Source of the DNA: Amphiscolops sp. MND2022
Lineage: Eukaryota
DNA length: 64,000 nucleotides
Direction of reading: 5' to 3'
Assembly: GCA_964187785.1 (NCBI GenBank)
Contig: OZ076409.1
Location: 43,092,001 to 43,156,000 of the forward strand
Part shown: positions 39,634-53,560 of the stretch, piece after piece
How positions within the stretch are numbered: position 1 is the first letter of the stretch
Layout: every line of letters starts with the position of its first letter
The notes under the pieces: generated by a model
Seen by the model: the letters and a program-made list of their open reading frames with translations, nothing else
Told to the model about the DNA's origin: nothing
Databases searched by the model: none
Position numbers and translations under genes: made by a program

Positions 39634-40431
39634 CACAAGAAGCGCAGCGGCACTGTGATACTTTTCGTATACTTTTAAAACGGAAAGTTTCCACGTTAAA
39701 ACCCCTCAGGGTTAAAAACGACTTTTTTCTTAACTGAAAATATCACAAAAACCCAAATTTGTCAGAATTTTCCTGAATTTTTTTGTTCGGAAAAAGTCGC
39801 ACATTGCCGAAATTACCCAAAGATGTGACTTCAGACTCAAAAAACGCGGTCCATAATCTAAAAACCGAGGCAGTGAACCTCTAGTGAAAAAATTAAATTT
39901 CATTAAAAATATCGCCGAGCCAGAAAACCGGTGATACTCTCCACAAACAGTTAGAAAACCCTCATCAGTCTCACACCAAAAAATAACTAGGAAAATTAAA
40001 TCGCCTTCCAAACATTGTTACCCTCAATAAGCTTTTTCAATTGCTTAGTGCGTTGGTATAGAGTCAGTCGAGTGTTTAATTGAAGTTTCTCACGCTTAAC
40101 GCGAGTTCTAGAAAAAATCAAGCTGACAACCATTCAAAGCTAATTGATTCAAATGACAACCAACTTTTGTTTAATTCGATTATTGGTTTTATCTATTCTT
40201 TTTTGATTATGTTGTTTTTCTTTCCAATTGAATTAACTTTCTTTTCCTTCCATCATTTGTAAAATCATGAACGATGTAAGTAAAAGAGGTATACAATTTT
40301 AAGTTATAAATTATAATCTCAAACATTTCGTAAAACTCGTAAATGGTCTGTTGGTCTGTACGTCAATGAGCAATCCGTTTTTTTTGGGATGAAAGCAATG
40401 TCAACTCAAGCATTTTCCAATTTCTGTATAG

Positions 40432-40672
40432 CTTCACTTCGGGATGGGAGGACGTGTATGTTGTATATTGGTACTGTGCCCGATCAGGCCTCACCATCAT
40501 ATGCTGCTGTGCGTCTGCGCTGCTGTTCAGAAGTATTTCCAAACAGTTCAGCAAGTCGACATGGCTGAGCACATTGCTTCCATTCAAGTATCAGCGAAGT
40601 GTGCTATGTAGATTCAACAACGCCAAGGCTCAACACAACGGAGAGGGCACTTCCCCCTCCGTTTCTATCGTG
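40432..40672 (+). CDS. Probable next GPCR exon: TM5 and start of ICL3
   Basis: Acceptor TTTCTGTATAG| in phase 2, matching the previous donor; FTSGWEDVYVVYWYCARSGLTIICCCASALLFRSISKQF...; GC-richer than its flanks; donor GTTGGT (40673) or GTAACA (40677). Confidence 0.6.
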
Positions 40673-43600
40673 GTTGGTAACAAACAAACATCAATTTTGA
40701 ATACAATAGAGTAGAATAGTTTCTTCCTTCTGAAAGCTATTAATTGTCCTCTTCTGAGAAAATTCTATAAAATTGTTCTTAAACGGCACATTCAAAGAAA
40801 TCTACCAGAAACGGACAAAAGAAGAGTTTTCAGCTCATCAAGCTTTTGCCTTTGAGAACCAATTTTACATAAAAATTCTGTTTTTTCATTGATCAACAGA
40901 TTTTAATGAACTGTGGATTCAGAAAAAGTGTTCGAACAGTGCTTTGTTCTCGGCTATGAAGACTTCCCTTATGTTTATTGTAAATTTTGTTGACGTTTTC
41001 CGCAATGAGTTATTCCATTCGGAATTAAGTTCAGCGACTGTAGCGAAATGTAGGCTTTTCTGAGGACGTTTGCTAAATTTGACTGTTTCAGCACAAGCAT
41101 GTTGTAAGTAGACGGTATTTTTGTTTTCTCCTATTGTAGTTTTGACCAACCAAACTTAAATCAAGTTATGACCTCGGTGCTTTGAATTGTTTACTTATTA
41201 CAGTGGCATTTTTTGTCAGATGACAATCTCACACTTTCGCAATCTTCGGCCGCCACACTCCCGCGGCCGTAGTTACCCAGCGCTCTATATTCGCCGTTTT
41301 GACATTATATCCGAAGTGAATTACTTTTTAGTAAGGAGAGGCGCAGGTTCGATAAAAGCGCTTTCAATTGTCCCAGCAAGCTATATCTGAACTTTGCGAT
41401 TTTTGAACCTGAAGCTCACGATGTTCCCGTCTTGTTTATAAGTAACTTTGATCAGGACATGCCGAACTTCACAGGTGTGAAATAGTGTGAAGTATTTGTA
41501 ATGTAGTCCGTACGTATCGTTGCCGTGTAATGTCATTAATACCTTAAAATATGAGGCTGTGGCTGTGAAGTATACCTTTTTGCTCAGTTGAAAATCTGCT
41601 GCCGTTTTACAAAAACATTCGGAAGAAAAAATGAGCCTGAACGGCCGGGGTCGGCGCCCCGCTCAAGCAACAAAAATGTATCCGCAGGACGTGGTTTCAG
41701 TATTTGTTGAAAAAAGATTTTTCGAAAATTCCAAAAAAACTTTTAGTACTGAAAAGCTGACTCTAAAAGTTTTACATTAGACGTAATGTAACGGCAAGCT
41801 CTCACCATTGCCGCAAGAGAGCGATAGAGATGAAGGAGCAAATGGCATGGGTAATTGCTTAGGACAGGCGCCCATGACCATGAGCCCATTTTGCCTCCTT
41901 CGGGTAGAAGTAGTCCCGCCAGAGGAGGATTCCGCCTCGTGTGGAGTGCTCGTCGACCTTTTGCAGTCCTAAATTGCCATCGGTAGTGTGAATTACGCCC
42001 TTTCTTTCGAAACTGCCACTTCGATAGTCTTTAAAAATGAATGTGGTGACAAAGATAAATTTCTACATCATAGGTCACGGTGAAAAAGTAGCTCACGAGC
42101 TAATTCATCAAGATAATTGGTACTTTATTGGACAATTAGCATGGCAAGGCAATAATTAGAGGTGCCCCCAGCACGGATGCTTGCTTAAGCGATTTCAAGT
42201 AATTGCAACAATTGGTAGCAACATGGTAATGAAAGCGCCGATAGAAACAGGAGTCCGTGTATTTAACAGATTTGAGTCTCTTCTTCTTCTTTTTAGCTTT
42301 CACCACCCACTCTGGGGGTACGCTCTCCTCTCGGTTGGCCTCGGCAAGTGTTCCTATGTCGAGCCAGGTTCGTGGCGGAAATGGGTATGGTGCAATCGAG
42401 ACATTCCGTGTATTTGGCTTTATATTTCCTTGCTGGGGCAAAGTTACGGGGGATTCTGTTGGTTGGCATCTTTTTCTGTGTCTCGCGAAGTTTTTCCGTG
42501 ACAGTGACTTGTTGCATGATGTACATGTTCTGTGTGTCTCCGATGAATGTTCCCCGTTACATGACTTCTGGTGGTTTGTCCGTGTGTTTTCCGTCTTGAA
42601 AATTCTGGTGCAGCTTGGGCAGGGAGAGAGGACAGGTTCTTTCTTGTTATGTATTCTTTTCGTGTGGATACCCAATCCAGCGGCGGTTCGGCACGTTTTC
42701 GCGTTGTGAGCATGTGAGGGACTGCTCAGATTTGGGGAAATTTCTGGTTTCAATTGTTTCGTAGTCTCGGGGTTTATTTGCTCTTTGTTGCTCCCATCTT
42801 TCAATGTGGGTCATTCTACTATGAATTGTTTTCCTTCACGTTTTTCTATCTTTCGTGTATTTCCCTAGGTCTGAAGGGTTTAGTCCAGCTTCTTTGACAA
42901 GTCTTCTCCAATACTGGGGAGTTGTTCTCGTTTTGGTTCTCTCTTTAGGGATTGTTTCTAACGCAGGTGACCATCCGAGGACAGCCGCTTTGACAGGTCT
43001 CGAGCTATCCATTCTGAGAACGTGACCTATCCGTTGTAAGCTTCTTTTTTTTATTTTACTTTGAAGCGTCTTGATGTTGAGCTGATTACGGATGTGCTGC
43101 ATGTTCATGTGTGTTTTCTCCATCGTGATCAGGGGAGGTTCTTTCTTGTTGCTCCACACATACCGGTATCTTCTGTCTATCCACTGTTGCATTTTGTTCG
43201 ATTTCGCTTTTGTACCAGGGGCGGACTGCGGAATCGAACAAAAGACCGGTCTCGCGCAAGTATGGCTTGTTGTCTCTTGAACAAACGGCTTTTTACCAAC
43301 TGGGGTCTTACCTTGGACCATAGGAAGGCTGCTCTCTTTATCCTGTTGGCTACATCTACCTCAGGGTCTACCCAACTGCCCAACATCCGTATCTCCTTGG
43401 ATTCCTCATCTCCGAAAATGAGTTTTTCCTCCTTTTTTTCGTTGTTTTTTTCCTCAAATTCTTGCATCGTTTCCTTGATCGCTTGACATCCCTGTTCCAT
43501 TTCCTCGGCCGTACCCAGAACGGTTGTGTCATCGGCGAAAAGGGAGATGGAGAAATGTGTTCTTTTGGCCTCTGAGTTGAATTTTCCTGTTTGTTCACTG

Positions 43601-45922
43601 GACGGGATTTTGTCGTTATCCATCCAGTTCCATGCTATTCCCCTTGATTTACCCGAAGACACTGCTCTTTCGTTGCGTTTCCTTTCCGCTGCTTGGATTA
43701 CTGCCTGATGGAACACATTAAACAGGACGGGTGAGGTCGGACAACCTTCCCGTAAACCTCGCTGGGGTATCCAATGGTCGCTGTCGCCTTCCTTTCCTTT
43801 CACCACGTATGCCGTTGTTTCATGAAGGTCCATCAAGCAGTTTAGGAAAGTGCCTTTCATTCCATGTCTTCTAAGAATTTCCCATAATGCTGGTTTTGAT
43901 ACCCGTGGGTATGCTTTCTCCATATCCAGGAGACGTCCTACCGGGTCACTGGGGAGGTGTGTTGGCATCTCAAGCGCTGTTCTCCTCCTCTTGATGAAAC
44001 TCATGTCTTCTTGGACCCTGATAAATATTTGTGTTGCGTCTGCTGTTGATCTGCCGGGGCGGAAGCCACTCTGGTTGTCATCCAGAATTCCGTTTTCCTC
44101 AGTCCATTCTCGAAGTCGCTTCGCGAGAATTCTGGCCAGAATTCTGCTTATCATCGGCAGTAGGCATACGCCTCTGTAGTTCCCAGTGTTCTCTCTGTCG
44201 CCTTTTTTGAACAGCGGGACGATTTGTCCAATTTTCACTGACGCGTTCCACTTGTCCGCTCGTTGTTCGAATAGAGACTGGGTAAGTTCTACGACGTTCC
44301 ATTTGATCTCAGAGCAGGCTTCTTTGATGTATCGAACTCTGACTTTATCTCTACCCGGGGCCGAATCCTTCATTTCATTAATGGCATCCAGGATTTCTTT
44401 TTCACTGGGGAGCATGTTAAGGAGTTCATTACTTTAGAGCCTGTTCGTGTCATTACTTTTATCCTCGATGGTGGAAACAGCCTGCATGATGGCACTGGGG
44501 TGATTTTCATACCGCCTAGACGAGATGTTTTCGAAATGCTCTTTGAACTGCTGGGTGGTGAGTTTGGTTCCAGCTAGAGGTTTGCTCGATCTTGTGCCAA
44601 GGGTGTGTAAGAGACTGTACATGCTCCCAAAATCTCCCCTCTCAGCTGCCTCCTGACACTCCACCAGCCGTTCGTCCCACCATTGTTGTTCTAGATTTCG
44701 GAGTTGTTTCTTCATATTTTTTCTCGCGAGGGAAAGTTTCTTCTGAAAGATTTTTTGTGTGATCTTGTTCTTCTTTTCTTTCGCTTCATTGCGTGCCTTC
44801 ACCCATCTGTTAATATCCAGTATGAGATTCTCCAGAACCCCTTCATTCCCTTTTATCCACGGGTTCTCTACTCGTTTTGTCTGCATTCCGCACGTTGTTC
44901 TTGCGGCCTGAACTAGGATTGACGATATTTGATCCCAATCGCGCTCTATGCCGATCTCGTCATCCTTTATCAGTTCTGCCGTCTTTTCTCGAACTTTCTG
45001 CTGTTTGTCCTCTTGACGAAGAGCTTCCCACTTTATATTGGGGGGAAGTTTTACTGCTACTCTCCATTTGCGCATTTTCGTCCCCAGGTACAAGCAGACC
45101 GGTTTGTGGTCAGAGTAGGACAGTTCATCCACGGTCCTCATTTGTTTTGGCGTGTCTGTGTCTCTGTGACGCTCTCATGATGAAACCGTCCAACTCGTAC
45201 CATCTCTTGGAGCTTTTATTGAACCATGTTCTTCTTTTGGCGTGGTTGGAGAAGGAGTTGACCCACTCGAGGCTTTGTTCTTGACACCAGCCAAGGAGAT
45301 CTCGGCCCTGCTCATTTGTGCGTGTTTCGAGGCCGTACTTTCCGCTGACTCCATCCCTTTCCGACGCTTTGCCTACGTGAGCGTTGTGATCTCCGCCCAA
45401 TATCATTAGGCAGTCAGAGGGGATTTTTATAAGGAGGTCTTCAACATCTTTACGGTACACATCGATTGCGTCTTCCCCATGCGTTTTCAAGGGTTGGTAC
45501 ACGGATATGATACACATTTTGTCAATCTGGACGAGGAGCGCTCTCTCTCTCTCTCTAAATTCCATGTTCTGGTTCCCTCGTATCCATTGGTCTAGAGCTG
45601 AGCCCCAGAGAACGATTCCGGTTTTGAGGGAATGGATTATCGCTACCGTCTTTTCTCCTTTGCCCATCCATATGACTCCCTGTTTGTCTGATCTTGTTTC
45701 AGGGATTATAGTGATCTCCCATCCATTTTTCTGGATGAATTCGATTGTTCGTTTTATCCTAGCGCGGTTTTTCTCCCTCATGGAGATTCCTTGGAGGTTC
45801 CATGTTACCACTTTTATCTCTCTATCCGGGGGTAACTTTCTCCGTTCCCTGCGCTTTGTTTGCCTCCTTATGTTTCTCAATTTTTTGTTTTCTTCTGATC
45901 TTTTTGTTTTCCCCCTTCTGGT

Positions 45923-45949
45923 TGGTCCCGGATTTGGGTGCACCGTTTC
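45923..45949 (-). other. Degenerate 2A-like motif (ETVHPNPGP) ahead of the APE domain
   Basis: NPGP is in frame directly upstream of a basic stretch and the APE domain; it deviates from D(V/I)ExNPGP at the D and E positions. Confidence 0.5.
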
Positions 45950-46134
45950 CAGCTTCCTGGCTATTATCGCGCCTGTGTGGCGGGCACTTGCCGAAACGGG
46001 TCCAAGAGGACCCTCGCCCTCAAGTTTGTTGAAGAGGTGCTTTGGTTGGCTAGATCATTGCCACTCTGTTGGCTTCCGGGAGGTGACTTCACGGATCCTT
46101 ACGGCTCCTTGGAAGTTCCTTTTCCGGGGCCCCT

Positions 46135-46209
46135 GTGTGTTCTTTGACGCACAAGACACGCTGTGCGCGGCCCACTTGCGCCACGTAGGAGGCGACACAC
46201 TCCGCAAGC
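46135..46209 (-). ncRNA. HDV-like self-cleaving ribozyme candidate in the LINE 5' UTR
   Basis: Minus strand GCTTGC-GGA-GTGTGTC-GCC-TCCTACGT-GGC-GCAAGT-GG-GCC-GCGCACAG-CGTGTC-TTGTGCGT-CAAA-GAACACAC. This gives P1 (6 bp, G1.U wobble), P2, P3, L3 starting UCC, P1.1 GG, a P4 hairpin and J4/2 with a catalytic-position C (plus-strand G46146). Confidence 0.8.
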
Positions 46210-46475
46210 TGTGTCGGAGTGAGACTGCGTCTGAGTCTGTCGCAATTAGCTTTCGTTTCGTCCTCGTTCTATTGGTCTCGATATCACACTAATCCGTTCT
46301 GGACCTCTTTGATTCTGCTGGCAGGTCTTTTTCAAAGTCACAGAGTCGGTCAGTGGAATATGACCAAATTCGCCGAAATTTAGTCCCTTGAACGAATTTT
46401 TCACAGTTTCAGACGTCGATGCTAGTTGATCGTTACATCAATAACGTTATACAAGAAACGAAAACGGTATATCCG

Positions 46476-49400
46476 AAGTTCGAAAACGTTTTATCCGCAT
46501 TTAAGTATGTGTAAAAATCTCGAGTGAGGACCTCTTTGTCACATTGAAAATTCTCCAAGAAACGTTGTGTTTACGTTAAATACGGGTTGTGTTATTACCG
46601 AATGGGACTCCTTAGCATTTATTAAAGCTTGGAAAAAATTCTCCAAGAAACCTTATATCCGGTATATGTTACAGCTTACAAGACTTAGAAAATCTGTCAC
46701 TTAGTCGGCGTTCAAAGAAGCCACTACTATAGTCATCTTCTTCTACGAAAGCGCCGACTGAAAAGAAATACAATCTGGCTAGAAAGCGTTTTCCGTCGTT
46801 GGAAACAAACAAACAAATAAGCCCCAAGTTTCGTTTCACTGAAACATTTATTACATTGGCGTGAAAAAGACAACACTTTTGAGTAACGTATTTTTAGTCG
46901 GCGCATTTTCCTTTAAGGAAAAAAGCCCGACTATTACAGTGGCTAGTTTTTTTTTCTTTTTTTTTTCGTCAGACCACAGAGCTCATCGCGTATGTACCAC
47001 TTTTTACAGAAACTGATAAGTTCACTCAGGTTAGTTCGACCAATGCAGACTTACTGCAAAGGGTCCCCCCTTTCGTTTTTTACCTTTTTTACGTAACCTA
47101 CAAAACCGGAAGACTCCAAAGGGTCCCCCCTTTCAATTTTTTTTCGGCACCGTGCGAATTTTTTTTCGAAAATTTTTATTTTTTCAAAAGAGTCCCCCCT
47201 TCGGATTTTTTGATATTTTGCAACAAAAAGTATGTTAATGAATCCCAAAGGGTCCCCCCTTTTCATTTTTCGGCACTATGCGACGTTTTCGAAGTTTTTT
47301 CAAAAAAATTTTTCAAAAAAAAATTTTCAAAAAAATTTTCAAAATTTTTTTGTTTCCAGTCGAGTCGGGAAAAGTGATTTTCCAGTCATATCGAGCATGC
47401 AAGGCACTTTGGGTGTCTCGAAAGTGTTTTCAAAGCTTTTCATGAATACATCCTGGGCATATTTAGAAAACTCTGAGCTTTTTGAGCCTTAGATATAGCG
47501 CCGACTTTAGACGTTCCCGTCTTGTTGGTTCTTGAAAATGCCAGCGCCCAAGTTTAATCATATACCTGTTCCAGATTAAGATACTGAGGTTATTAAAAGC
47601 TTAGAGCGGCTACATCGTTGACATTATAAAATTCGTCTTTGTAAATCATATTTGGCCAATCAATCCTTTTCCAAAACCAAAGATTTAGTGCAAATTTGAG
47701 GGAAGTTCAAGTAAACCATGCTTGAACGTTATGACAGTTTGCCGGGTCTAATAGAAATTCAACTTTGAACCATTGTTGTTTATATGAACAAATTTACTGC
47801 ATAGACAAGTTATTTTTCTTATATGTTCATGTATTTTCTACTGTTTATTGTCAGTTTTTTTTCGACATTTTTCTTGATTGATTAAAACAGTTGATAGTGT
47901 TCTAGTCGTCAATTAACTGTTAAGTAATAAAGTCAGAGGTCATGTGAACAGAGTCAAACAAGATATGAAGAAATCAAAGTTTGGAAAAAGTAGTTTGTGA
48001 AAGTTTGATGTTCGAGTTGTTAATGAGTCATTGTCATAGAATATTCCTTTGTCAATCTCTGTTTACCAGTTTTTGAAATTGGGCTTACTAAGATATGTTT
48101 ATTATATTTTTACCTTCATAACTCAAGAGTGTCAGCCCCATACTCTAACCAAATTTTACTATCTGAAAGTTTTTAAATTCAGAACAATGCTGATCATGAA
48201 CTTCATAGTGAAGAAATGGAAAGTTCATAAGTGTTCGAAGACAAAGAACTAGTTAAGCCCATGGAAAATGGACTCAATGATTATTCATGGTTTTCATCAA
48301 AAATCATATCCCTAAATTACAAAAATCACAACTTTTGTAAAATTCTTACAAGAGTTTTTGTAAGATCTTGTAAGAAAATGCATTTTTAGAATCTAAAGCT
48401 TGCAAAATTCTTGCAAGATTTGCATTTTTCTCCTCAGAATGGTACAAAAAATGCATAAATCTGACAATTTTTTGCATTTCCTGCCTCAAAAAATTTAACG
48501 GCAGCAAAAGAAAACGATCTATACGCCAAAAATGATACAACTGTCCATATTAGAGCATTTAGGTCTTTAACTATCGGAATGCTTAAAAAGTTCGAAAACG
48601 TTTTATCCGCATTTAAGTATGTGTAAAAATCCCGAGTGGGGACCTCTTTGTCACATTGAAAATTCTCCAAGAAACGTTATGTTTACGTTAAATACGGGTT
48701 GTGTTATTGTCGAAGGTACTCCTTAGCATTTATTAAAGCTTGGAAAAATTCTCCAAGAATCCTTATTTCCGGTATATGTTACAGCTTACAAGACTTAGAA
48801 AATCTGTCACTTAGTCGGCGTTCAAAGAAGCCACTACTATAGTCGTCTTCTTCTACGAAAGCGCCGACTGAAAAGAAATACAATCTGGCTAGAAAGCGTT
48901 TTCCGTCGTTGGAAACAAACAAACAAATAAGCCCCAAGTTTCGTTTCACTGAAACATTTATTACATTGGCGTGAAAATAACAACACTTTTGAGTAACGTA
49001 TTTTTGGTTCTTGAAAATGCCAGCGCCCAAGTTTAATCATATACCTGTTCCAGATTAAGATACTGAGGTTATTAAAAGCTTAGAGCGGCTACATCGTTGA
49101 CATTATAAAATTTGTCTTTGTAAATCATATTTGGCCAATCAATCCTTTTCCAAAACCAAAGATTTAGTGCAAATTTGAAGGAAGTTCAAGTAAACCATGC
49201 TTGAACGTTATGAAAGTTTGCCGGGTCTAATAGAAATTCAACTTTGAACCATTGTTGTTTATATGAACAAATTTACTGCTTAGGCAAGTTATTTTTCTTA
49301 TATCTTCATGTATTTTCTACTGTTTATTGTCAGTTTTTTTTCGACATTTTCTTGATTGAATAAAACGGCTGATGGTGTTCTATTCGTCAATTAACTGTTA

Positions 49401-50068
49401 AGTAATAAAGTCATATCCCATGTGAACAGAGTCAAACAAGATATGAAGAAATCAAAGTTTGGAAAAAGTAGTTTGTGAACGTTTGATGTTCGAGTTGTGA
49501 ATGAGTCATTATCATAGATTGTTTCTTTGTCAATCTCTGTTTACCAGTTTTTGGAATTGGGCTTACTAAGATATGTTTATATTATTTTTACCTTCCTAAG
49601 TCAAGAGTGCCAGCCCCATACTCTAACCAAATTTTACTATCTGAATGTTTTTAAGTTCAGAACAATGAACAATGCTGATCATGATCTTCATAGTGAAGAA
49701 ATGGAAAGTTCTTAAGTGTTCGAAGACAAAGAACTAGTTAAGACCATGGAAAATGGACTCAATGATTATTCATGGTTTTCATCAAAAGTCATATCTCTAA
49801 AATTCAAAAATTACAACTTTTGTAAAACTCTTACAAGAATGTTTGTAAGATCTTGTGAGAAAATGCATTTTTAGAATCTAACACTTGCAAAATTCTTGCA
49901 AGATTTGCATTTTTCTGCTCAGAATGTTGCAAAAAATGCATAAATCTGACAATTTTTTGCATTTCCTGCCTCAAAAAAATTGAACTGCACCAAAAGAAAA
50001 TGATCTATACGCTAAAAATGATACAACTGTCCATGTTAGAGCATCTAGGTCTTTAACTATCGGAATGC
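46476..50068. repeat. Tandem duplication of a ~1481-bp unit (A 46476-48587 including a 631-bp insertion; B 48588-50068)
   Basis: Both units begin AAGTTCGAAAACGTTTTATCCGCATTTAAG and end CTTTAACTATCGGAATGC; they are colinear apart from the insertion. Confidence 0.93.
46896..47526 (+). mobile_element. Helentron/HINE (DINE-1)-like non-autonomous element with boundaries defined by an empty site
   Basis: Present in duplicate A and absent in B (empty site GTA-TTTTT-GGTTC at 48998-49010). Begins AGTCGGCGC, has the inverted GCGCCGACT ~25 nt before its end and ends CTTGTT; inserted in a T-run. Confidence 0.75.
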
Positions 50069-50822
50069 CTTATTTGCATCATGAGCATTGTTTGATGATA
50101 TTGTTGTAAAGCTTTTGCTTACAACATTACAGCCCTGCGTTGTGTCATTGCCTCTGAGAGTGCAATGTCCTGCATTCTCAGCAGTCTCCTGACTAGTTGA
50201 AATGGGCTGGGGAAGAAATGAAACTGATGGTTAACGTTTGCTTGAATTTTCAGGGTTTTTATAGTTTTCAATATGACATTGCACAGGTGGTTTTGTAGTA
50301 ATTTTGCTGATTTTCTCCATCACAGCAGCTGTCTGCAGGTTTGCGTTAAAACTGTTAGAAAGCCCTTGAAATTTATTTTTATTTCGTACTATGTTCATTT
50401 TCCTATCATCATTAGCTGAAGAGTTCTCGGGACTTTTGTCCGGAGTTTCATAGCTATATACGTTATAGTAATTTTTGCGGTGAAATTGCATGTAAGTTCT
50501 TCTTGCTCAAAATTAACAATTTGGACCCTTTTGCTGGGATCCTGGGACAGTTTGTGCATTGTAAACGGCAACTGTGGCTGTTGTTGCTGGAAGTTTGATA
50601 ATTTTTGAAGTTTTGGTCGAAATAACACATCACATTTTTTGTAAGAATTTCTTACGAAAAAAATGCATTTTTTTCAAAAATGTTATCAGAATCTTGTAAG
50701 AAATGTTCGACATTGTAACAAATTTGGAAAATTTGCAATTCTTGTACAAACTTGTAAAATTTTTGTAAGAAATGCAAAGTTGACAAGAATTTTGCAAGAT
50801 TTGTGATTCTTGTAACTTAGGG
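49795..50822. mobile_element. CACTA/EnSpm-like non-autonomous element (left arm duplicated at 48310-48582)
   Basis: CCCTAAATTACAAAAATCAC (intact at 48310, mutated to CTCT at 49795) versus GTGATTCTTGTAACTTAGGG (ends 50822); 'AT' on both flanks; subterminal TTCTTGCAAG/TTCTTACAAG arrays. Confidence 0.65.
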
Positions 50823-51282
50823 ATGAGAAGTTGTAACTATAACCGAGGAAGAATTGCATTTTCCTTGACCGAGATATACGTTTGTAGTCGGCGCTTTTCT
50901 TAAGAAAAGAATCGACTATATTTCATGGCTTTTCGTCAGTGCTTTTTTTTCGATACATCTGAAGCGACAAAATAGTTCTACCAAAAGTTCTACAAAATTT
51001 TAAGGCACCAAATTGTACCTGTTGGCCCAGGAAACTGAACCAAAAAGGTTTTTTTTCCGCGTAACATACAATACCAGGCGAGTCTAAAGGGTCTCCCTCT
51101 CAGTTTTTTCGGCATTGTGAAACTTTTTTTCGAAAAAATTTTTTCCATAAAGGGTACCCCCCTCATTTGTTCGGAGTTTTGCGACAGAATGGATGTTGAA
51201 AAATCACAAAGTGCCAAGGAGAAAATCTAATTAGTTCTACTTAACTGTCGTGTATTTCTAGTTCAAACATTTTCTATCACAG

Positions 51283-51494
51283 GTACCAAAAAACGAGGTT
51301 GAAATGAAGGAGAAGAAAAAAGGAGAAGCCAATGACTCAAAAGAGGGCACAAACAAAAAGAGGGCAATTGAGATCATTGCGGTCAAGGGACAGCGGAAAG
51401 CAGATGCAAAAGACGAATCTTGCGTTGACAACGTTGCTGAGGTCCATCCTAATATTTCCGATGATAAATGCAATCATGCTTACTCTAGAGAGAG
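51283..51494 (+). CDS. Candidate coding exon (charged, low complexity; possibly GPCR ICL3)
   Basis: Acceptor TTTCTATCACAG|, donor AG|GTTAGT, open frame VPKNEVEMKEKKKGEANDS...YSRER; phase 0 is compatible with the 40673 donor. Confidence 0.45.
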
Positions 51495-53560
51495 GTTAGT
51501 TCGTTTGTTTACTTTCAAAAAAATTTACAATTTACTGAATTCTCAAAACCAAAGATTGGTTACCAAGATCACTGAAAAGTTTGATAAAATAAGAGTAAAA
51601 GTAGATAATTCTAATTTCAGGAGGTATTTTATAGAAACTTCTAAAAATTCACACAAATTTGCGCGGAAATTTTAAAAAGAATTTTACATCAGCAAAACTC
51701 AGAGGCAGCAAGTAGAGCAGTAAAATGAGTCGAACAATTATATAATTGACTGATAATTGACTATTTTTCATTCGTTAACGTTTATTTTACTCTGACCAAT
51801 TGCAAACTTTGGACGATGTTTCTTATTTGCCCGTTTGATCGAACACGTTGATTGAATTTATTCCTTCGGCCAAGTGGGATTAGCCCCTCTGAACATATTG
51901 TCTATGTTCGGCTTCAACGCCTTACTATTTACAAGATCTTTAATCAACCTGCATTCTGAGAACATCGAAAGTCCAGATAAAATTTTATTTCAAACCTGCC
52001 AATGATCCCAGGGAAATTTTCAGCTCGAAAAGATTGCAGCGTCTTGTATGTGTTCTAGGCTCTGCAGAAATTCACGTGTTAACTATTGAATACTTTCCAA
52101 ATCAAATTTCAGCGTTTCACCGAAAATAAAAGCGTGAAATAGCTCAATTTTTGTTAATAAGATTATGTCGACATCAAAATTCCAAAACAATGCCAAACAA
52201 TGCTGACGTAATGGTTCATGTCCCTTACTCCCCTGGCCCCGCGGCCCCTTGTGGAGGAAGAAACGTGTTCCTCGCATTCAAACAGACCTGCTGCCACTTG
52301 ATCATTGTGCGATATATTTGCTTCCACAAGGTCTCTTTCCTTGTTCCACTTCGATTAGCAGGACATCCGTAGCGGCCACAGGGCACAGAGGAGGAGGTCC
52401 ACTGGACTTAACAAAATACATAAATACCTATAGTAGAACAAATGAATTCGATCAAGAATAAATCGAATATTGAGAAAATTTAGACATCTTGTTTCCTACT
52501 TCTTTGGTTTTTTGTATATTTGAAAGAGAAAAATCTTTTTATCTTCCGATGTTTTTCCTTGATTTATTCTTCAGTCTTCAGATGTCTCTGGTGAGAGCAA
52601 AAGCAGAAAGGTGTTTTTGAACTCAAAGGGCCCCTTTTAGATTTTTTGGTAGTGTGAAATTGAGAATTCATTCAAAAGATAATCTTTGACTCTATGAAGT
52701 AGTTTTGGCGTTTTTGAGCCTTAAGCGAGGAGTCGACTTACGCAGTTCCAGGCTTGTTTACTACGATAGATAAGTACGCGAGTAGCCGGGAAAAAAGTTG
52801 GAAAATTACAGCTTCCTTCAGCGGGATGGCTGTGCAGAGTCGAATTATGTAGGGTCGAAAAATTTGCAAAATTATCTAGGATCAAGTTGTGACCCTCCAG
52901 CTAGATGTGTCAGAAAAGCCCGAATTCACAGAAGGGCATTTCATCAAAATGGTGGAAGAAGATATTATTTATGTTTATCAACGCTATATAGCAAGATACA
53001 CTTACAAAGCTGAAACTCAGCGCCACGATCCTGTTCACCGAAGTTGTCACGCAATGGCCTGCCATCCATGATTCATGCCTCGCCATGACATGGGCATTGT
53101 ATGGAAATCCATGAAAATGTCCTGCATCTGGGCTGGAGGCTCTAAAAAACTAACATCTCAAAAAATAGGAAAATTGAAAAAAATCAGCTTAAGTTTCTGC
53201 CAAGGAAAACGCTATGTTAATTTGACATTGCCATATATGGTACTGAAAAACTATACAGTGAATGCAGGGGCGTTGAATGCTGAACTTATTTTGAATTGGT
53301 GCATGGAATTGACCGAAGAGAAGGGTCATAAATAAATAAGTTTAAATGAGAGAAGGGTCACTCATAAATTTAAACAAGCCGGGACCGGCCCAATTGCCGC
53401 CATATCTAAGGCTCAAAAATAGCAAAAGGACTTCAAAGTGTCAAAGTATTCTCTTCTACAGTAGCTGAAAAACCCAAAAAGGTGAGCCGGGGTCCATTGT
53501 TGCACAACATTAAAAAATTGAAGGGAAACCTTTTAATGAAATTTTTTTCGGCACAACAGT

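Follow-up and report, generated by a model that had tools for sequence, protein, structure and literature searches.

HDV-like ribozymes at retrotransposon 5' ends were reportedly described by Webb in 2009 and by Ruminski in 2011. Such ribozymes have been assigned to the 5' ends of RTE, R4, R2, and L1Tc retrotransposons (PMC3774820), and ribozyme-aided initiation on uncapped RNA has been proposed for R2 and L1Tc (PMC6765202). The L1Tc/ingi elements of trypanosomes combine a single ORF and a 5' HDV-like ribozyme of ~75 nt with a 2A-like peptide before the APE endonuclease, C-terminal zinc fingers, a target duplication of ~12-13 bp, an upstream target consensus, and internally deleted derivatives (PMC5814959, PMC6765202, PMC3708506). 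R2 also carries a 5' HDV-like ribozyme and inserts into one rDNA site using an RLE nuclease, which is positioned by a DNA-binding module upstream of the nick; its RUM upstream motif is read by an N-terminal zinc finger/Myb region (PMC13586686). Regarding dispersed APE-type LINEs, site choice has been described as operating via the nuclease and tail pairing, and the retargeting of LINE-1 by fused DNA-binding domains is stated to have failed (PMC13708176).

The element in the present study lies in a 64,000-nt stretch of the genome of Amphiscolops sp. MND2022 (contig OZ076409.1; hereafter the window), in which a LINE copy of ~3.9 kb with a single ORF interrupted by frameshifts and stops occupies 42280..46209 on the minus strand. 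Fragments of this ORF, both on the same strand, correspond to an APE endonuclease (45125..46054; Exo_endo_phos_2, E 3e-4, under the curated cut-off) and a reverse transcriptase (43177..44433; RVT_1, E 2e-21), and the copy ends in a (GAA)n tail (42280..42294, minus strand). The L1Tc/ingi features listed above all recur in this element. In contrast to the trypanosome elements, it has a (GAA)n tail instead of poly(A), no RNase H hit, a reverse transcriptase that by eye resembles the RTE group, four fingers (one C2H2 and three C2HC), and a target consensus made of repeated GAN triplets at 20-30 bp from the nick, the nick position being free of any consensus. It shares with R2 the 5' ribozyme and, by our reading, an upstream DNA-binding module that positions the nuclease, whereas it is APE-type, its fingers are C-terminal instead of N-terminal, and its sites are dispersed and degenerate.

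The combination of APE and reverse transcriptase, a repeat tail, target duplications, and 5'-truncated copies is that of an APE-type LINE, and the single ORF, the short tandem-repeat tail, and the lack of RNase H are RTE traits. RNase H, a domain that follows the reverse transcriptase in the Ingi/L1Tc clade, was not detected by Pfam at E<=1 in an intact 1291-aa protein. The first-pass annotation had called the element RTE-like; this designation holds only loosely, in that the reverse transcriptase motifs are, by eye, common to the RTE and RTETP entries of the RTclass1 file (PMC3708506), and by motif inspection the clade looks RTE-group. The first-pass annotation did not mention the 2A-like motif, the four fingers, or the target repeat upstream.

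We consider it likely, with a probability of roughly 0.8, that the 5' end of this LINE is an HDV-like ribozyme that likely frees the element RNA, and that its family inserts ~20 bp downstream of a GAN repeat which the fingers of the element probably recognise. HDV-like ribozymes have been described at the 5' ends of LINEs before; what is new is the target motif, which outweighs the ribozyme in importance; the ribozyme alone is one more of a known class, with naturally covarying variants that Rfam misses.

Ribozyme fold and its variants

The first-pass annotation proposed a nested double pseudoknot at 46135..46209 in which every element can be paired, and all of these pairings were found on the minus strand from 46209 to 46135, with G46209 as G1 and the cut predicted 5' of it. 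P1 (6 bp, the G1.U pair included) joins 46209-46204 with 46174-46179, P2 (7 bp, A46141 bulged) joins 46200-46194 with 46135-46142, P3 (3 bp) joins 46193-46191 with 46180-46182, and P4 (8 bp including two G.U pairs) joins 46168-46161 with 46147-46154. The 8-nt L3 spans 46190-46183, P1.1 consists of C46189-G46172 and C46188-G46173, and J4/2 CAAA (46143..46146) contains the predicted catalytic cytosine, C46146. A P1 of 6 bp had been noted as departing from the usual 7; it falls within the published range, which is "typically 6 or 7 bp" for R2 ribozymes (PMC3774820) and a "6- or 7-bp P1" for most HDV-like ribozymes (PMC4908430).

Two computational searches had been suggested along with the fold, and their outcomes diverged. 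An HDV descriptor that allowed a 6- or 7-bp P1 and one P2 bulge returned 46135..46209 as its single match on both strands of the 64 kb, a result biased toward this fold because the descriptor was written after the fold had been seen. Block-wise dinucleotide shuffles (n=200) yielded 0.075 cores per window with a P2 of at least 5 bp, 0.005 with a P2 of at least 7 bp, and 0 compact cores. The Rfam covariance models (4227 families, E<=5) gave no HDV-type match in positions 40000-52000 of the window; because these models appear to be lineage-specific, a match to them is presumably not defining for the HDV-like class. ViennaRNA, which cannot fold pseudoknots, placed its nested minimum (-25.8) in a different structure; each nested half of the ribozyme model (-19.8 and -20.7) lies ~5 kcal higher.

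The fold had been made to depend on covariation among copies, and this was present in P1, P2, and P3 between families. In an unfitted MAFFT alignment of ten ribozymes (eight from the own genome and two metagenomic), 92.3% of cells were paired and two-sided changes occurred in 8 of 26 pairs, counts that represent non-independent events because the copies are related; the observed covariation was reached in 0/500 shuffles, and slid-structure controls paired at 27-51%. P1.1 was paired in 100% of the cells of this alignment and P4 in 82% only, and five of the seven P2 pairs showed two-sided change. The P2 pair beside P3 flipped between C-G and G-C with the bulged A kept. L205, L211, L189, and L238 were omitted from alignment A3 because MAFFT had placed L205 and L211 wrongly and displaced family E. 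Eleven ribozymes were also parsed by hand, a procedure that favours the expected structure; four of them were metagenomic, from contigs obtained via protein homology. P3 was complete (3/3) in all 11 of these, P1 in 10, and G1 stood opposite U or C in 11/11. The catalytic C and the remainder of J4/2 (C64-A65-A66-A67) were invariant in 13/13 aligned ribozymes. Compensatory changes in P1, P2, and P3 were observed across sister families and metagenomic relatives and, together with the element boundary described below, lend support to the fold as well as to the cut site and the catalytic C predicted from it.

The nested double pseudoknot, G1 at the 5' junction, a P1 of 6-7 bp, P1.1, and a catalytic C followed by purine-A are features shared with the known RTE/R4/R2/L1Tc ribozymes. 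Differences from known LINE ribozymes are the 8-nt L3, in which two variable bases follow the P1.1 pyrimidines, a bulge or purine mismatch that is conserved at the second pair of P2, and the failure of Rfam models to match. The extra base of the 8-nt L3, located between the P1.1 Cs and CG, is conserved, as is the P2 bulge adjoining P3. L3 measures 8 nt in families A-C, 7 nt in families D and E, and 7-11 nt in metagenomic ribozymes; P1 of family E is 7 bp long and contains an A.A mismatch, and in the L258 family a U-A pair replaces one P1.1 C-G pair (read by eye). Distant relatives, in which L3 differs, were missed by the strict descriptor and were parsed by eye, and a relaxed parsing script found no complete ribozyme in L255, L256, L257, L259, L260, or L264.

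The window ribozyme differs from most family-A copies in the P4 loop only, and the window copy, judged from its sequence, is no longer functional as a LINE but retains an intact ribozyme fold. By every structural test, 46135..46209 is a member of the HDV-like class, with Mg2+-dependent self-cleavage predicted 5' of G1, and the fold very probably has a ribozyme role.

Insertion junctions and the upstream GAN repeat

The ribozyme query gave 31 matches from several families in the 1.07-Gb own genome, and a core-pattern search of the same genome gave 29, with 0 in the reversed control. Homology among the own-genome copies begins at G1. G1-C2 is the starting dinucleotide at 23 of 28 ribozyme-bearing loci, and the remaining five have altered first bases. 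A duplication was accepted for 19 full-length copies. In 12 of these it ended at position -1 or +1 relative to G1, being flush with G1 in nine and reaching one base into the element in three. Flush copies lacked an extra cap-type G between the duplication and the element. The most common duplication length was 13 bp (8/19 full-length copies). Two probable segmental duplicates (L069 and L127) were dropped before these counts, a tail filter rejected 7 of 36 candidate duplications, including that of L069, and L191, L186, L194, L195, L188, and further old copies had no usable junction. A duplication of 30-45 bp beginning at the GAN motif was considered and rejected, the actual length being ~13 bp. 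One RNA run (share 0.07, contigs only) contained no contigs over the ribozyme.

Some copies are incomplete in other ways. L065 (G000:C611:6121-6344) comprises the first ~223 nt only, with the ribozyme kept, the tail absent, and a 14-bp duplication, and priming apparently began within the RNA. Six copies (L066, L068, L073, L081, L082, and L083) have internal deletions and retain the ribozyme and the 3' end, most of them with duplications; they are SIDE/NARTc-like non-autonomous derivatives.

The flanks of ribozyme-bearing copies showed no consensus at the junction or nick, and G/A peaks at -43/-42, -40/-39, -37/-36, and -34/-33. The motif was scored over eight positions as GAnGAnGAnGA, a pattern chosen on the first 29 loci. 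Across 30 loci, matches at -33 totalled 150, whereas the highest best-offset value in 1000 shuffles was 107; 18 loci scored at least 6/8 and 12 scored lower. The rotation of flanks with their repeats kept reached the observed value in 0/5000 trials (28 loci). Ten held-out loci, of which five were metagenomic and five belonged to families D, E, and L258, reached 61/80 at -33 versus 25 when shuffled (0/2000). Anchored on the duplication, the motif ends ~20 bp upstream of the left edge, which we take as the first nick, and its score in full-length copies was 128 versus 77. The window copy conforms to this pattern: a GAN repeat matching at 7/8 positions (46258..46268, minus strand) ends 20 nt upstream of the left edge of its duplication. 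Among nine 5'-truncated copies, the motif reached at least 7/8 in six and was absent in three (total 55 versus 38, 0/1000). Since it also occurs in 5'-truncated copies at a fixed distance from the duplication, the motif belongs to target choice and not to the ribozyme.

Near-identical flanks were found in different copies, partly of different families (L126/L149; L063/L064; L133/L146/L154/L160), which suggests that multi-copy host repeats were hit more than once at one and the same site. L198, L210, L211, L259, and L190 adjoin long (GAT)n microsatellites; such arrays agree with the GAN motif and are candidates for preferred targets. In a seawater RNA library, a single contig (run X1 against L076, loose end before 1667; depth ~7) links a 5'-truncated family-B copy with a flank that has a GAN repeat ~19 nt upstream. 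L179 (G000:C7:59447200-59452600) is a 5'-truncated family-A copy with a duplication of ~70 bp, and the GAN motif is not evident near its 5' junction. The literature searched, which was largely open-access, contained no account of fingers reading GAN targets in an APE LINE, and subscription papers or Repbase may already describe this clade or its ribozyme.

Zinc fingers and rival explanations

The C-terminal four-finger array (one C2H2 and three C2HC) is split by a frameshift in the window copy (42293..42810, minus strand). Protein relatives at E<=0.001 numbered 310, including proteins from Symsagittifera roscoffensis and Branchiostoma belcheri; the best 120 of them were 47-55% identical over the reverse transcriptase region, bar one near-identical entry, and 91 of these 120 had four fingers. 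Within these 91, finger 3 has Asn at +3 in 80 and Arg at +6 in 81, finger 4 has Asn at +3 in all and Arg at +6 in 88, and fingers 1 and 2 are without the pair. The finger region of the ~90 proteins that keep Asn+3/Arg+6 is 35-49% identical to the query. In the general zinc-finger code, a helix with Asn+3/Arg+6 specifies GAN triplets. Engineered helices for GAA, GAC, GAG, and GAT are listed with N+3/R+6 in all cases (PMC5260015). AlphaFold predicted beta-beta-alpha fingers with a mean pLDDT of 87.5. Foldseek returned no match for the array at E<=0.001, its top rows being C2H2 arrays at E>0.001, nearly all of them DNA-bound, and the ESM Atlas returned only unnamed or C2H2/RVT clusters. The linkers between fingers are long (medians of 10, 12, and 23 aa) compared with the canonical short linker, three of the four fingers are C2HC, and the GAN code is present in two of four fingers, whereas the motif spans nearly four triplets. 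We give targeting by reading through the C-terminal fingers close to an even chance of being correct.

In the mechanism that we propose, the ribozyme would release the element RNA from read-through transcripts by cleaving immediately 5' of G46209, with C46146 as the probable catalytic base by analogy with known HDV-like ribozymes. The cut would leave a 5'-OH RNA, the folded end of which may be protective and may also aid the start of translation, the putative family-A start codon being in the P4 loop. The C-terminal fingers would then bind the upstream GAN triplets and place the APE nick ~20 bp away, the (GAA)n tail would prime through microhomology of 1-3 nt, and a second nick would produce the duplication of ~13 bp.

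It is possible, if less probable, that the ribozyme is real and that the motif is read by the APE, the reverse transcriptase, or another protein surface, leaving the fingers as RNA binders or chaperones as in L1Tc. The upstream consensus of L1Tc/NARTc has been ascribed to the endonuclease, and the similar C2H2 fingers of L1Tc are described as binding nucleic acids without sequence preference (PMC5814959); moreover, family D, with three fingers, keeps the motif in part (6/8 in L251; 7-8/8 in L252, in a shifted register). Such a reading does not sit well with the retention of Asn+3/Arg+6 in two fingers over ~90 diverged proteins, in exact agreement with the GAN code, or with a motif that lies 20-30 bp from a nick which itself has no consensus. 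The motif may alternatively arise from base pairing between the (GAA)n RNA tail and the target, or from a broad preference for GA-rich or acidic-codon DNA, given that the tail and motif have a GA-N period in common and that many flanks are GAN-rich over longer stretches. We regard this as unlikely: the third bases are not A-biased (A in 27/87 at -41, -38, and -35, with C commonest at -35), the signal is abolished by flank rotation with repeats kept (0/5000), and the nick lies between the motif and the primer strand.

As is well established, internal promoters likewise yield uniform 5' ends. The sharp 5' end may alternatively mark the start site of an internal Pol II promoter at G1, the fold then being vestigial or non-cutting, or both functions may coexist, as described for Pr77 of L1Tc, which is a promoter and ribozyme at once (PMC5814959). 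Compensatory P1/P2/P3 pairs, an invariant catalytic C, and a G1 facing U or C are not expected of a DNA promoter, and the flush copies are without an extra G between the duplication and the element, all of which makes a promoter in place of a cutting ribozyme quite improbable. Chance pairing finds some support in the absence of an Rfam match and in a nested MFE unlike the model; set against a shuffle rate of at most 0.075 per window, the coincidence of the fold with the first base of the element, and covariation, it is very remote for the window fold, and at the family level it is excluded by the shuffles and covariation.

If, as we prefer, the fingers of the element read the GAN repeat, this would be a natural zinc-finger-guided retrotransposon with a potentially re-aimable choice of landing site, which would be unusual, and native-finger targeting could serve RNA-only gene insertion. 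The element is compact with a single ORF, four intact copies are present in the genome (family B, open frames of 1289-1293 aa), and its native fingers apparently act as a ruler to the nick, which would make modular APE-type targeting directly testable. A broader proposal falls a little short of even odds, namely that the 310 proteins represent an apparently unnamed and widespread APE-LINE clade that combines the ribozyme, a 2A-like motif, and a GAN-reading finger array with a nick fixed ~20 bp away, and that would be retargetable by helix swaps.

Putative start codon, 2A-like motif, and surroundings of the window copy

The P4-loop codon (46157..46159, minus strand) is GUG in the window copy and AUG in most sister copies. 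In family A, the P4-loop AUG (nt 51) is the only in-frame AUG before the 2A-like motif, and the frame is open from this position in four of the seven copies tested; the window copy, one of the seven, has a stop at nt 153. The 2A-like HPNPGP motif (45923..45940, minus strand) precedes the endonuclease, and xxNPGP, mostly as HPNPGP, stands before the APE in 65 of 78 relatives with an N-terminus. The window family has the non-canonical form ETVHPNPGP, and family D and some relatives have the canonical GD(I/V)ExNPGP. In family D (L251-L253; P0002, P0012, and P0018), which has three C-terminal fingers only, the canonical 2A is followed by a Cys/His cluster, presumably resembling a PHD finger, and then by the APE. 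The clades named in the 2A surveys are Rex1, L2, L2A, Crack, CR1, and Ingi, with RTE absent from among them (PMC3708506, PMC3894237). A Pfam RIP row (E 0.037) was dismissed as chance.

The window copy is flanked by a 7-bp target duplication (left 46232..46238, right 42273-42279, minus strand), and 22 extra bases separate the left duplication from G1 (46210..46231, minus strand). These bases can be read as segments of 6-7 nt from the ribozyme and the 3' junction, pieced together in inverted orientation, and may have arisen by templated repair. The idea that this 22-nt leader is a special block of the window ribozyme was not supported by ViennaRNA because the leaders of other copies pair about equally (8.5 pairs in the window copy versus 0.1-7.6 in the others). 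The LINE splits an older repeat of ~700 bp (46237-46437 and 41784-42279, span 41784..46437, minus strand), the two halves of which are joined at loci L017-L028 and L030. This repeat is unclassified, its copies are 78-89% identical, and a query containing it yielded 211 first-look candidates.
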